A DNA stretch of 64,000 nucleotides, taken from Lytechinus pictus (Eukaryota). The translations under genes were made by a program, and so were the position numbers. Below, piece after piece: positions 13,530 to 60,470 of the stretch; the stretch's first letter is position 1, and every line of letters starts with the position of its first letter. Where the stretch lies: positions 10,914,001-10,978,000 of the forward strand of contig NC_087250.1 in the NCBI RefSeq assembly GCF_037042905.1, in the 5' to 3' direction. The notes beneath the pieces are model-generated. The model worked only from the letters and a program-made list of their open reading frames with translations, was not told the origin of the DNA and searched no databases.

Positions 13530-13925
13530 TGTAGCTATTGTCAATAGTTAACTTCAATGAACTTGTATGCTTTGACTGAGAACAACCACAATGCAGGATG
13601 TTCATCGGGGACTATTCATCCTTCTGTGATACTCTGCTAGTGCTCTTGACTTTGTGGACTGCAGTGGACATACCATTGTGTATTTTCAGAGTTACCTTTT
13701 TGGCGATTGTCTATACTTACATAGTATGTAAACATCCATGTTGTATGTATGCACCTCTATGCGTCACTATACCTTGCTATGTAGCTATTGTGTATAATTT
13801 ACTTCAATGAACTTGTATGCTTTGACTGAGATCAACCACAATGCAGGCTGTTCATCTGGGACTATTCATCCTTCTGTGCTACTCTGCAAGTGCTATTGAC
13901 TTTGTGGACTACTGTGGACAATACA
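13530..13925 (+). repeat. 250-bp tandem duplication immediately 5' of the L2-like LINE remnant; further partial copy at ~12920-12980
   Basis: acttcaatgaacttgtatgctttgactgag at 13551 and 13801; gtctatacttacatagtatgtaaacatccatgttgtatgtatgcac at ~12926 and ~13709. Confidence 0.85.
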
Positions 13926-13929
13926 TCTT

Positions 13930-15183
13930 TTGGGTTGTAAACTTTTCACTAGAAAACATTTTCTTAAAAGGAGGATCCCATATAGTGTAATTAGCAATGC
14001 CTCCTTTCAGTTGGAACTGCTTCATGCCGGCGATGTCCAGCCTAATCCCGGCCCTGACAAGCTACGCGATGACACTCTTCATGATACAAAAATTCATTTA
14101 AAGATCTTCCCGAATCACTCTGTTGTACTCAGTTTGTAAACTTTGGTACTCATTCTCAAGGTCACACGCTTGACCTCCTTCTTTGTCGCCAATCTGATGA
14201 TGTAATTGTTGGTCATCCATGGCCTTGTAAATATCTTATTTCAGATTATATTCCAGTCATGTGCCATCTCAACACATGTAAACCATTTTTGACGGACAAG
14301 ATTGTGTCGTATCGTAAATGCTCCCGTATTAACACTGCAGTATTTAACAAAGAGATTGCAGATAGTACGCTATGTAAAAATTGACATGTATCACAAGATA
14401 TTTCTGAATTGGCAAACGTGTATGATATCACACTCAGGAACCTCTTAGATGAGCATGCTCCCTTGGTTTTGAAGCGAGTAGTTGCTCGCCCTCACGTGCA
14501 ATGGTATACAGACGAGGTCCGAGAAGCAAAAAGGCAGAGACGTAAAGCAGAAAAGAAATGGCATAGAACAATAACTGATTAATGTCTGAACAAGTATAAG
14601 AAAGCTCGTAACACGGCATTATTTGTTTTAAATGCTGCTCACAAAACCTATCACAAAGACTTGATATCACTTAAAAAGGATGACGTAAAAGTCTCGTTCA
14701 CCGTTGTTAAATCTCTGCTGAATGTCTCAAACAAACATCCAGTGATGCCATGTAACATTGATAGGATGGCATTTGTGAATGACATAGGAAAACATTTTCA
14801 TGATAAAGTTCTTAGTATTTACAGTGATATTCAATCAAATATAAATTTGATTGATGGTATTGATACTGATTCATTTGGTTTATCTCCAGCACCCGAAGAT
14901 ATTAATTTTATAAATTTAAAATTTTATCAGAACGAGAAGTGCGGTAACTCGTGATGAAGCTCACTAGGAAGTCTTGCTCTGCTGATCCACTTCCAACAAG
15001 TATTATTATGCAACAAATCAATGTTATACTTTCTGTGTTTACGTCTATGATCAATGTCTCCGTGTCTACAGGTCATTTTCCTAATAAATGGAAAAAAACC
15101 TTGTTTCACCTCTGTTGAAAAATCCAGGTCTAGATCCCGAATTCTGTAATCTAAGACATGTAAGCAACTTACAATACATTTCA
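13930..15183 (+). pseudogene. Decayed L2-like LINE ORF2 (2A-like leader, partial APE, linker, start of RT)
   Basis: Frameshifted motifs GDVQPNPGP, THSQGHTLDLLLCR, SDY.PVMCHL, LLDEHAP, KSCSADPLPT, GHFPNKWKK and LLKNPGLD...RHVSNLQYIS; numerous stops. Confidence 0.8.
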
Positions 15184-55300: not shown

Positions 55301-56643
55301 TAGAGGATTGAAAAATTGAATTATTTTATTGTCATTACCCTAAATATCAATGGATTTATTTCGTACTTATACTGTGGGTAAATCAAGGTGACCATACGTT
55401 GTATTGAAAATATCTGATTTCATGAAATAACTTTTCCACTGATATATTGAATAGACAAAAATCAAGCTTGTAAACATTCATCTAAATGATAGTCAAAATA
55501 CTTTAAAATATAAACGTATGTGGTGTATACTTACCGACTGTCAGATAACGTAAGGATAAAGAGAAAGATTAAGAAAATGTACAAGCATTAAGGAATATTT
55601 CAGAAAACGCTCTTCGAAACGTACTTTGAACTATTTGTATTGTTTAAGAGGTTGGCCTGATTTCAAAAAAATAATTTTAGAGGATTGAAAAATGGAATTA
55701 TTTCATTATCATTACCCTAAATATCAGTGGATTTTTTTTCGTACTTATACTGTGGGTTTATCAAGGTGACCCTACGTTGTATTGAAAATATCTGATTTTT
55801 TGAAAGAAAAATAAATTCTATTGATATATTGGATGGACAAGAATCAATCTTATAGACATTCATCTAAATGATAGTCAAAAATGCTTTGAAATATAAATGT
55901 ATGTGGTGTATACTTACTTTCTGCCAAATAAGATAAGGAAAAAAGAGGAAGAATAACAAAATATAGAAGCATTAAGAAAACTTTTCGAAAACGCTTTTCG
56001 AAACGGAATTGGAAATATTTGAATTGTTTAAGAGTTTGGCCTGATTTAAAAAAAATAATTTTTGAGGATTGAAAAATGGAATAATTTCATTGTCATTACC
56101 CTAAATATCAATGGATTTATTTCGTACTTATACTGTGGGTAAATCAAGGTGACCATACGTTGTATTGAAAATATCTGATTTCATGAAATAACTTTTCCAT
56201 TGATATATTGAATAGACAAAAATATATTTTTACATTTCTCTAAGGAATAGTGAACAAAGACCATTAAAATATAAATACATGAAGGTGTATACTTACGCCC
56301 TGTCAAATAACGTAAGGAAAAAGAGAAAGAATAACAAAAGATAAAAGCAATAAGGAATATTTTCGAATACACTCTTCGAAACGTACTTGGAACTATTTAT
56401 ATTGTTTTAGAGGTGGGCCTGATTTAAAACAAAATAATTCTAGAGGATCGAAAAATAGAATTATTTTATATTCATTACTCTAAAATTCAATGGACTTTTT
56501 TTTTAACTTATACTGTGGGTAAATCAAGGTGACCATACGTTGTATAGAACATATCTAACTTCATGAGGAAACCTTTTCCACTGATATATTGAATAGACAA
56601 AAATATATTTTGACATTTCTCTAAGGAATAGTGAACAAAGACC
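19372..56643. repeat. ~380-bp AT-rich tandem satellite array (left part, ~98 monomers)
   Basis: Head-to-tail recurrence of cgtacttatactgtgggt(a/t)aatcaaggtgacc...ggtgtatacttac...gctcttcgaaacg...ttttagaggattgaaaaat. Recurring ORFs are spaced by multiples of 381 (30788, 31550; 41435, 42578). Confidence 0.98.
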
Positions 56644-56644
56644 T

Positions 56645-59623
56645 AAAGCTCGATATTCTAATCTCTACATCCAGAAAGCATACTTGAAATCTCGTATCCC
56701 ATACTATACTAACGCTATCGCTAGTCTCAACATTAGGATCATATGCTGTGGTGATGTGAATCCTAATCCAGGCCCATGTGTTAGTTCACGTCTCTCTGAT
56801 AAAACTCAATTTCGATCAACTAGTAAGCAATTGAGTTGCATTTTGCTAAATGCCAGAAGTCTACGTCAGAAAGTACCTGAGTTCGAATCATATATATGTA
56901 CTTCCCGACCAGACATCATATGTATTAATGAAACATGGTTGAATGATGATGTTTACGATGCCTCCTTGGGTATTCCACAAGATTACCTTATATTTCGTCG
57001 TGATCGCCCTGGTAATCGGCGTGGAGGTGGCGTCTTGCTTGCTATAAAGCAGTACCTGATACCGGAACGGAAGGTAAACAATAGCTGTCTTGAAATCATC
57101 TGGGCCTCCTTGAAGAATGGTTCTGACTCATGGCTGATTGGTGTATTATATAGACCTCCCAATAGCAACACATCTTATTGGGATAGGTTGCAAGCTGAAT
57201 TAGATTTAATCAAACCTGATGATTATGATGGATGTCTCCTTCTAGGTGATTTCAATGTTGATATGTCGCCAAATGTTCATTCTTCAAATCGGATTCACTT
57301 GTCATCGATGATGAATGAGCTTGATCTGATTCAAATGGTATCCTCTCCAACTAGATTGTCGAATGAATCTTCCACTGAGGGATCAATCATCGATCTTGTC
57401 TTTACCAACCGCCAATTCGCTCTTCTGGATGTTAATACCATGGCTAATCCTGTGGAGTCTGACCACCTGGCAGTAAGTGTTCGCCTGCGATCACCTAAGC
57501 CTGCTCCGACGCCTTCAGTTCTCCGATCGTTTCTTCATTTGGAACAGGCAGACTTTGGTCATCTTCGGCATACTTTACACCTATTGCCATGGGGTTCTCT
57601 ATTGGATCCGGCTAACATTGAGGAAAGCTACGAACTATTTCTTGACCTGTTTCATGCTGCCGTCAATGATGCCATCCCACGTACCTTGAAGAAGAAGTCT
57701 AAATGTTCACCTTGGATCTCAACAGAACTAAAGAAACTTGTCTTGGTGAAACATTCTTTGTTTAGAAACGCTAGACGGTCTAAAAGACCTGACGATTGGA
57801 CTGCTTACAAAGCTCTTAGAAATAAGGTAAAGAAAGAAACTAGGAAATCTTACTGGACTTATGTGAACTCTCTCTTTACTTGTAAAGATAACAGGCGTAA
57901 ATTCTGGTCATTTATACGTAATAGAAAGCATGCTGTACCACCTCCTAAATTCAAGTTAAATGATATTAACATGTGTAAACCTTGTGACATTGCTAATGCT
58001 TTCAGCACTTATTTCTCCTCCATTTTTGGTCCTTCTTTACCTATTCCTAAGGCTCCTTCTTCGTGTACTTTGCCTATCCCTTCTCTCTCTGACCTGTCCG
58101 TCTCCACCTCTGATATTCATTCTGCTCTTCTTCGCTTATCCAAGAACAAACCACCGGGACCTGACGGATTGTTACCCAGTGTACTCAGTAACATTGCCCT
58201 CGAAATTTCACATCCTCTATCTATTCTGTTTAATGCTTCTCTCCACAGTGGAACTGTACCTTCTTCTTGGAAACGAGCCCATGTTACTCCTGTTTTTAAG
58301 AAAGGTGAAACATCCGACATTACTAATTACCGACCAGTTGCCCTAACATCTGTGTTGTGCAGAGTGCTTGAGAAGATGATCGTGAAGGCTATTGATAATC
58401 ATGTCGAATCGTTTGGTCTCCTCAATAGATACCAGCATGGTTTTACCAGAGGGAAGAGTTGTGTTACTCAGCTGGTGAATGTGCTCCATAGATGGGCGAC
58501 TGTCTTGGATAAGAGATCCCCACCACGAATCGACGCAGTTTTTCTAGACATGTCGAAAGCTTTCGACAAAATGCCTCACAATGCTCTTCTTGCCAAGCTA
58601 TCCTCTCAATTCAACATTCAGGGTAACCTTTGGAGATGGATTTGTTCTTTCCTTTCTAACCGCTATCAGTCTGTTCTCTTTCAGGGTTCAACCTCTCCTT
58701 GGATTCATGTCCCTTCCGGAATTCCGCAAGGGAGTGTTCTGGGGCCCAAGCTATTCAATCTCTTCATTAATGACATCTCCATTTCCCTTTCTTCTGAAGC
58801 TGTTCTCTTTGCAGATGACCTTCTTTTATTCCGTGTTATTTCTTCTGATGCTGACGAAATCATAGTCCAAAATGACTTAGATAGTTTGATACAGTGGACT
58901 GCCAGCAATGGTATGTCCTTTAATGCACAGAAGACTAAAGTTATGCATGTGACCAGGAAGAAAAGAATCCAAACTCCTCATTACTATTTAGGAAACGCAT
59001 GCATAGCATCCGTATCTTCATTCTTGTACTTGGGTATTACAATTAGTTCAGACCTATCATGGAACCCACATATTGAATCAATTGTCTCTAGGTCGAACCG
59101 TCTGCTTGGTTTTATCCGTGTTGTCGCACGTGGTGCTTCTACCAATGCCATTTTTGCATTGTATAAAGCTCTCATCTTACCAATCCTCGAATATGGCATT
59201 CCTGCCTGGCACCCGACGACCTTAACTCAATCTAGAAAAATTGAAAAGATTCAGCGTACGGCAACCCGCTTGGCTCTCAAGCAGAGGCGAGGCGAAATGC
59301 CGTACGATGAAAGACTTCAGGCACTTAACTGGTCATCACTCACATCTCGTAGGGACTACTTGTTATGCTCATTTGCATACAAGTGCCTATCAGGTTTATG
59401 TGACTGTGAATCTCTTCTTGAAAACATACTCATTAACCCACGTCATATGGAAGTTCTTTCCTTTCGACATCTTTCTTCTAGGACACAATCCCTTTTCTGC
59501 ACCCCCTCCAGAAGACTACCTCGACTGTGGGATACACTACCCAACGACATCAAGGATGTTGCTGTTCTTTCTCCTTCTACTTTCATCAGGTCTGTAAAGC
59601 AAGCAATTCTATTTCCTGATTAG
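56645..59623 (+). CDS. LINE ORF2: 2A-like leader + AP endonuclease + reverse transcriptase (5'-partial, no initiating ATG)
   Basis: APE motifs LLNARSL, ICINETWL, GGGVLL, LYRPP, LGDFN, SDH; RT motifs PGPDG, YRPVAL, QHGF, FLDMSKAFD, GIPQGSVLGP, FADD, YLG; CR1-type C-terminus YDERLQAL..SL..RR. Frame is open back to the insertion junction. Confidence 0.95.
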   Translation, partial: KARYSNLYIQKAYLKSRIPYYTNAIASLNIRIICCGDVNPNPGPCVSSRLSDKTQFRSTSKQLSCILLNARSLRQKVPEFESYICTSRPDIICINETWLNDDVYDASLGIPQDYLIFRRDRPGNRRGGGVLLAIKQYLIPERKVNNSCLEIIWASLKNGSDSWLIGVLYRPPNSNTSYWDRLQAELDLIKPDDYDGCLLLGDFNVDMSPNVHSSNRIHLSSMMNELDLIQMVSSPTRLSNESSTEGSIIDLVFTNRQFALLDVNTMANPVESDHLAVSVRLRSPKPAPTPSVLRSFLHLEQADFGHLRHTLHLLPWGSLLDPANIEESYELFLDLFHAAVNDAIPRTLKKKSKCSPWISTELKKLVLVKHSLFRNARRSKRPDDWTAYKALRNKVKKETRKSYWTYVNSLFTCKDNRRKFWSFIRNRKHAVPPPKFKLNDINMCKPCDIANAFSTYFSSIFGPSLPIPKAPSSCTLPIPSLSDLSVSTSDIHSALLRLSKNKPPGPDGLLPSVLSNIALEISHPLSILFNASLHSGTVPSSWKRAHVTPVFKKGETSDITNYRPVALTSVLCRVLEKMIVKAIDNHVESFGLLNRYQHGFTRGKSCVTQLVNVLHRWATVLDKRSPPRIDAVFLDMSKAFDKMPHNALLAKLSSQFNIQGNLWRWICSFLSNRYQSVLFQGSTSPWIHVPSGIPQGSVLGPKLFNLFINDISISLSSEAVLFADDLLLFRVISSDADEIIVQNDLDSLIQWTASNGMSFNAQKTKVMHVTRKKRIQTPHYYLGNACIASVSSFLYLGITISSDLSWNPHIESIVSRSNRLLGFIRVVARGASTNAIFALYKALILPILEYGIPAWHPTTLTQSRKIEKIQRTATRLALKQRRGEMPYDERLQALNWSSLTSRRDYLLCSFAYKCLSGLCDCESLLENILINPRHMEVLSFRHLSSRTQSLFCTPSRRLPRLWDTLPNDIKDVAVLSPSTFIRSVKQAILFPD
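56687..56776 (+). other. 2A/StopGo-like peptide KSRIPYYTNAIASLNIRIICCGDVNPNPG-P
   Basis: Matches GD(V/I)xxNPGP with N in place of the canonical E; located directly N-terminal to the APE domain. Confidence 0.75.
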
Positions 59624-60292
59624 GACTATTATGCTTTTCTACTTTTTCTGCTTAATACAATGATTCTGGTTCTGCCTTGGAGACATTTCCTTTTCATTAT
59701 CTCTGCCTCTCTTTCTCTCTCTCTCTCTTTTCTCTCCTTCTTACTTTGTATAAATTATCTCTTTCTCTCCAATCAAAATTATGCAATTATACAATATGCA
59801 CTTAATGCATGCTTTTTCTCTAGATTTTATCTTGTATTTTATCTTGTAAATTACCTTAATTATTTAAGACTTGTACAGGGATACTCTTATCCTTCCTCTT
59901 TATCTCCTCGATTCGTTAATCCAAAGCTGTATCTTATCCCCATTTCCTATCCTGATGAGTTTTATTGTGTTATCATGTGTTTTTTTCCATTCCATCCTAC
60001 TTTGGATTTCTACCCCCCCCCCTATTTTTTTCCGAACTCCAGTTACCCCAGATCTGTTTAATCTTATATATTTGAATTCCTAATTTCTATTGCAAGTTTA
60101 TTTAAAATGCCCCTTGCTTTACTGTTCAGCACCGAGGTGTTAATTTTTTACTATGTTATATCCAATTTTGCAGTGGTATTTTTTTCTATTGCTTCTCAAG
60201 ACTTTCTAATTAATTATTTTGTCACCCTTTTCAGTATTCCCTTTTTTAACGTGCAATATTTTGTGTAAGAGTATATATTTTATTTATGTCTT

Positions 60293-60376
60293 GGGAGCGG
60301 CATGTGTGGGGGCTCATGCCTTCGGGCAACAGTGATGTATTTCGCTTTTGTGCCCCCTGACCCAAATGCCGTTCCC
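60293..60376 (+). other. Multi-branched stem-loop in the LINE 3' UTR
   Basis: GGGAGCGGCAT/ATGCCGTTCCC outer stem, GGGGGC/GCCCCC inner stem, and hairpins TGCC-TTCG-GGCA and AGTGA-tgtatt-TCGCT. Confidence 0.7.
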
Positions 60377-60470
60377 GCATTTCTTTGCATGTTAATGTAC
60401 TGTAAATGTTATTCTAATGTAATGTATATGTTCTTTTTTATATTGGTCAAATAAATAATAATAATAATAA

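Follow-up and report, generated by a model that had tools for sequence, protein, structure and literature searches.

Does a 2A-like peptide in which the conserved glutamate is replaced by asparagine still divide the ORF2 product of a LINE, and what would such a peptide be kept for? The question is raised by a locus in a 64,000-nucleotide stretch of Lytechinus pictus DNA (hereafter the window), where a preliminary description made from the sequence had placed a non-canonical 2A-like peptide, followed by a short Ser-rich linker, directly ahead of the APE domain of a LINE ORF2. This arrangement was confirmed by translation, Pfam searches and block shuffles. The 30 residues encoded by positions 56687–56776 of the plus strand read KSRIPYYTNAIASLNIRIICCGDVNPNPGP, and the region consists of the following parts:

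56687–56776 (+), 2A-like peptide of the YYxN upstream type, like those of STR-40/55/61/89/197/51/69/142_SP
56750–56776 (+), core GDVNPNPG/P, with the skip predicted between 56773 and 56774
56777–56833 (+), Ser-rich linker of 19 residues (5 Ser), poorly conserved in the comparison with relatives and contigs

The peptide is in frame near the N-terminus of ORF2, 19 residues ahead of the APE domain, a position which the preliminary description had associated with APE-type non-LTR elements and which indeed matches the elements of Odon 2013 (PMC3708506). Its core departs from the exact canonical D(V/I)ExNPG/P by having Asn at the Glu place (DVNPNPGP; Asn-Pro at 56759–56764 instead of Glu-x), and agrees with the GD(V/I)xxNPGP core of Odon 2013, for which not more than one deviation from the canonical form is allowed. 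The upstream tract shares the YYxN stretch with the active STR-51/61/69/197, yet it is poor in Leu, with a single Leu in positions -19 to -10, and has Leu at -16 where the YYxN type usually has Phe. A chance origin of the motif is ruled out: the six-frame translation of the window contains two instances of GD[VI]xxNPGP, none of 60 block shuffles produced one, and only about 2e-6 would be expected by chance in this ORF. Pfam gave no family for either of the two 2A-like peptides of the window or for the leader, and the protein atlas returned three clusters at 0.83–0.84, which is below the level often reached by shuffled proteins.

The element that carries the peptide was delimited within its satellite host as follows:

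19372–64000 (no strand assigned), satellite array (monomer about 377 bases) that received the insertion and continues in phase on either side of it
56641–60470 (+), 5'-truncated CR1-type APE LINE in the satellite array, delimited by the satellite junctions and family contigs
56641–56643 (+), 3-base microhomology at the 5' junction of the element with the satellite (contigs match from 56641, satellite runs to 56643)
56642–59623 (+), remaining ORF2 by reading frame, 993 open codons, first in-frame ATG at 57263
56834–57475 (+), APE endonuclease with NARS (56849), NETW, YRPP, GDFN, IDL and SDH (Pfam Exo_endo_phos, E 3.1e-14)
58301–59044 (+), reverse transcriptase with QGSVLGP and FADD (Pfam RVT_1, E 1.3e-32)
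59624–60470 (+), pyrimidine-rich 3' UTR with AATAAA and a (TAA)n tail at about 60449–60470

All catalytic motifs of the APE and RT domains are present in one frame without a stop over the 993 codons, and to this extent the ORF2 was rightly called intact. The stop-to-stop frame has 1008 codons, of which the first 15 are satellite DNA; since the element starts at 56641, within the leader, and its first in-frame ATG (57263) falls inside the APE domain, with only a TTG (56684) in frame ahead of the core, the word holds for the reading frame alone. The copy therefore has neither promoter nor start codon nor the front of its leader, and it is untranslatable through the peptide from an ATG. A simple-repeat tail at the 3' end and 5' truncation are usual for LINEs of the CR1 clade, and both are present here. 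The (TAA)n tail merges into a TAAAAT of the target, there is no target-site duplication, the element replaces 2 target bases, and the target 24-mer was found in 50 of the 59 satellite monomers examined. The copy is probably young. The array itself extends over 45 kb, is AT-rich, shows higher-order periodicity at about 754, 1133 and 1509, and is possibly centromeric or heterochromatic. As judged by eye against reference passages in the Odon supplement, the RT resembles those of CR1-19_NV, CR1-19_HM and CR1-23_HM and differs from the L2 and Rex1 references STR-142 and STR-197, which places the element in the CR1 type; its APE-RT is 24% identical to that of the L2-type protein P0315.

The copy was compared with family contigs from four sequencing runs. 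In all four runs the contigs matched from 56641 and continued upstream of that point with 30 identical letters; by eye these form 10 sense codons in frame, and one contig reached 1309 bases further upstream. The divergence from the copy was about 3% in the X12 contig (36 differences over 1160 bases), a contig that may derive from RNA. No change of the Asn codon was among the contig differences listed for the four runs, making it unlikely that the Glu-to-Asn replacement is a mutation private to this copy, and the only difference listed in the core (56750–56776) was silent. In the X3 contig 14 differences were counted and 12 listed over 56641–57020; the two remaining are A>C or G>A according to the X5 change-type tally and more probably sit near the contig end. 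Neither change can produce Glu, but His could arise by A>C. Silent and replacing differences among the 40 listed numbered 4 and 1 in the peptide, 0 and 3 in the linker, 13 and 5 in the APE domain, 5 and 8 downstream of that domain and 0 and 1 in the leader, with an overall pN/pS of 0.25; the contrast between peptide and linker taken alone was not significant (Fisher p 0.14). The same contrast was found with the nearest two proteins, whose identity to the copy is 63% and 55% and which share 7/9 and 6/9 residues of the core and 4/19 and 1/19 of the linker. Conservation of the NPGP-bearing core relative to the linker, the check proposed in the preliminary description, was thus found both in the nearest relatives and, with small numbers, in the contigs.

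For a wider comparison 269 relatives were kept after 45 near-duplicate cluster members had been dropped, the named ones including crinoid and sea urchin elements. An [NH]PGP ahead of the APE domain was present in 95 of the 266 APE-bearing relatives, a set biased toward 2A bearers because the search profile held the motif. Asp at -7 (83/94) and Gly at -8 (75/94) were conserved, and the Glu place was occupied by E in 46, H in 29, A in 5, N, Q and S in 4 each and K in 2 relatives. Thus 48 of 94 relatives are without Glu, and 27 of these 48 have Pro at the next position against 3 of the 46 with Glu. This association was followed on an RT tree built with FastTree from 131 rows of unnamed relatives (14 of 145 were left out for having no usable RT), where 5.8 of 9 independent pairs pointed in the same direction and 0.0 in the opposite (median p 0.03, range 0.008–0.375). 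Glu and non-Glu states changed into one another 20 times among 86 rows. The copy belongs to a clade of five (support 99) with the cores DINP, DISP, DVES, DIET and DVNP, and Asn-Pro recurs in four other relatives on separate branches. The mixed cores within the clade, together with the pair test, therefore make Asn-Pro a recurring alternative; the replacement of Glu-x by Asn-Pro is a recurrent family-level variant and not decay of this copy. The departure at the Glu place, which the preliminary description had singled out, is accordingly real, while the surprise was overstated, both for the number of relatives without Glu and because the same change has been published and assayed.

Several other arrangements were seen among the relatives. 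The single ORF2 leader of P0236 holds tandem 2A-like cores, DIELNPGP and DVELNPGP, 13 residues apart. In P0002 (residues about 55–90) 14 inserted residues separate the YYxN stretch from the core, and a second hydrophobic run precedes its GDIETNPGP; P0293 is similar. Among 35 distant loci inspected by eye, two had a 2A and were free of ORFs over the 812 and 255 bases upstream, while 12 with an adjoining upstream ORF had no 2A; non-LTR elements with a 2A are usually without ORF1 according to Odon 2013. The 2A-bearing ORF2s at L001:813-4271 and L009:256-2058 have a hydrophobic stretch at the N-terminus, and the available DNA ahead of them contains no ORF.

The reading we consider probable is that the peptide gives partial skipping and drop-off, which would ration APE-RT in full-length members. 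ORF2 of such members would begin about 75–100 codons ahead of the APE domain with a leader ending in the 2A-like peptide, and the peptide would be kept by selection. A ribosome stalling at NPG/P would yield a released leader and free APE-RT, or drop off, or continue into an uncut fusion, and we propose that from this mixture little ORF2 protein would be made. Down-regulation of ORF2 was proposed by Luke et al. (2013; PMC3894237). We infer skipping by the peptide of the CR1-type copy from its near-twins, and we also infer its use as a throttle. By eye, STR-40_SP has 19 of 30 residues identical to it and STR-197_SP 17 of 30, the latter sharing the YYxN stretch and the replacement of Glu by Asn followed by Pro. 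With its CGDINPNPGP, STR-197_SP is listed as active in the supplement of Rao et al. (2025; PMC12338488), where STR-55_SP holds the identical DVNPNPGP; the rows of that supplement consulted contain eight S. purpuratus peptides of the YYxN type, and those tested (STR-51, -61, -69 and -197) are listed as active in four of four cases. All three xNPNPGP 20-mers found in the preprint of Snell and Matreyek were assigned to the skipping or the skipping-and-falloff class, by means of a model with an accuracy of 86% on the data used to train it. In the same preprint five Ser-Pro or His-Pro 20-mers that look like the YYxN type were non-skipping in human cells; these 20-mers include no YYxN stretch, and their type was judged by eye. 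Odon 2013 reported that Glu is often changed, that the E>D, E>Q and E>N forms (the last being STR-197_SP) had low activity, and that most 2As of the CR1 clade are weak or inactive.

A possible but rather doubtful extension of partial skipping, compatible with it, is that the leader combines a signal peptide, a spacer and the 2A, so that uncut ORF2 protein would enter the ER and be lost while the skipped enzyme would stay cytosolic; skip efficiency would therefore set the dose. In 9 of 11 relatives with a YYxN peptide an N-terminal 10-residue stretch reached a mean hydropathy of at least 2.5, a threshold met by 9 of the 79 ATG-led frames in the non-satellite DNA of the window, and 7 of the 11 leaders exceeded shuffles of themselves at p <0.05. 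The stretch is uncharged and lies at residues about 5–25, with the 2A ending at 74–109. Among 51 long leaders with a 2A it fell within residues 1–28 in 26 and within the next 28 in 9 (Wilcoxon p 0.002), and the decayed L2-type copy described below keeps such an N-terminus, 69% identical to that of P0319 over 29 residues. The same logic has been shown for sea urchin NLR proteins (PMC4981915), and ER targeting itself can inhibit skipping (PMC2978324). Against this extension, the targeting is predicted from hydropathy of the sequence, the CR1-type copy has lost this part of the leader, P0003 of the same clade is without the stretch and P0317 scores 2.19. The N-termini of the relatives are those of automatic gene calls. 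The tree-aware test of a hydrophobic start did not reach significance (7 pairs, median p 0.25), and its rows without 2A are often truncated N-terminally. The frequency in 2A-bearing and 2A-less proteins (26/51 and 2/49) was not relied on because many of the latter are probably cut short at the N-terminus. A second conserved type of leader ahead of the 2A, with a YRxxIG-like start and mostly without the hydrophobic stretch, was found in 18 proteins with CR1-like ORF2s (P0044, P0051, P0069, P0083, P0086, P0169, P0172, P0180 and 10 more). A search with the P0001 leader returned itself and one weak match (2 of 32 candidates).

A second 2A-like peptide, missed in the preliminary description, was found elsewhere in the window, at 13966–14055 and ending in GDVQPNPGP, within the following element:

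13841–15183 (+), decayed L2-type element, recovered by tblastn with P0319 at 69–82% identity in five pieces

This element begins with an ATG-led hydrophobic N-terminus at 13841, followed by a frameshift in the leader, and an internal deletion of about 230 codons has removed most of its APE domain. Its core is DVQPNPGP where its relatives have DVHPNPGP. Its 5' part is duplicated at 13530–13670. The RT of P0315, a cluster mate of P0319, is that of STR-142_SP letter for letter over the passage available, and STR-142_SP, among the L2 elements in Odon 2013, is thus a close relative of the decayed element. The 2A region of STR-142_SP, with a His-Pro core, is 49% identical to that of the CR1-type copy over 37 residues. 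The 37-residue region of the copy is 46–51% identical to those of three L2-type leaders, compared with 24% between the enzymes, and with the core excluded the best and the joint second-best upstream matches among 80 peptides were L2-type. The YYxN type was found in 0 of the 25 CR1- or Crack-named rows consulted in the Rao table (PMC12338488). This likeness fits an exchange of modules between clades, which Odon 2013 had raised as a possibility; shared ancestry or convergence could also lie behind it.

Taken together with the leaders, this allows a broader proposal, unlikely as a whole, of a portable leader (signal peptide, spacer and YYxN 2A) shared by CR1, L2 and Rex1 elements and moved between the clades. 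It would dock the ribosome at the ER and dump uncut ORF2 protein into the secretory pathway, leaving only the skipped APE-RT with its own RNA; cores with Glu or with Asn, His or Ser plus Pro would tune the skip split, and the YYxN stretch, which lies beyond the usual 20-mer, would be required for activity.

It is equally unlikely, in our estimate, that the peptide no longer breaks the chain and is kept as a stalling, drop-off or protein-lowering element that throttles ORF2. The frequent exchange of Glu while GD and NPGP are kept would agree with such a role, as would the lowered protein output of 59% of the ORF2p-associated peptides of Snell and Matreyek and the small share of highly active ones (43 of 580 retroelement-associated peptides) in the preprint of Baral. 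However, lowering of output tracks at least three Leu in positions -19 to -10 (Snell and Matreyek), where the peptide of the copy has its single Leu, and the near-twin STR-197_SP made skipped products as its main products (PMC3708506). The other role suggested for the motif in the preliminary description thus has no direct support, although drop-off or lowered output is a published alternative. A relic, that is, an ancestrally active 2A decaying neutrally in the family of the copy, is highly improbable: decay is given as the simplest reading by Odon 2013, and the two nearest relatives have the canonical DVESNPGP and DIETNPGP, but silent differences outnumber replacing ones in the listed differences of the peptide, Asn-Pro is repeated on the separate branches mentioned and in two published elements, and GD, NPGP and YYxN are all intact.

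As found, the locus adds one family to the list of 2013 and therefore matters little: a 2A-like peptide in a LINE is not new, and this is one more family of a published type. The leader architecture, namely the signal-like start and the sharing of the peptide between CR1 and L2 elements, is the part for which no paper was found. The signal-like start of complete YYxN leaders may thus be without a published description: among papers other than theses, Repbase notes and subscription journals, none was found that describes a LINE ORF2 leader with a signal peptide, and the text of Odon 2013, as far as consulted, has no use of 'signal peptide' or 'signal sequence'. If true, such a start would tell the purpose of the peptide upstream of the 2A, and single-ORF LINEs would gain a dosage control through ER targeting. 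The clade of five offers a natural series (Glu-Ser, Glu-Thr, Ser-Pro and Asn-Pro) for a bypass of the Glu contact.

Among known systems, the closest are the LINE peptides of Odon 2013, which lie before the APE domain in Rex1, L2, Crack, CR1 and Ingi elements. STR-197/55/40/61_SP resemble the copy in the YYxN type, the GD(V/I)xxNPGP core and the position ahead of APE, and with STR-55_SP and STR-197_SP published both the phenomenon and the Glu-to-Asn variant are therefore already in print. The setting differs: STR-61 and STR-197 belong to the Rex1 clade with 90–115 residues from 2A to APE, while the copy has a CR1-like RT and 19 residues. Compared with F2A and P2A, the peptide keeps G11, D12, V13, N16, P17, G18 and P19, but it has Asn for E14 and no LL helix at L6-L7, having Arg and Ile where F2A has these two Leu. 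In F2A and P2A, E14 is intolerant of substitution, His in P2A excepted, as are L6/L7 (Baral preprint); the F2A structure shows E14 stacked on 28S rRNA, and natural His variants are about 90% active (Li et al., 2026; PMC12846837). The leaders of the relatives are comparable to SpNLR2A (Roulston et al., 2016; PMC4981915) in joining an N-terminal hydrophobic, signal-like stretch with a 2A, a combination that allows two destinations in SpNLR2A. There the 2A, 26 residues long, doubles as the signal, while in the LINE leaders of 74–109 residues the two are separate parts and the targeting is predicted.
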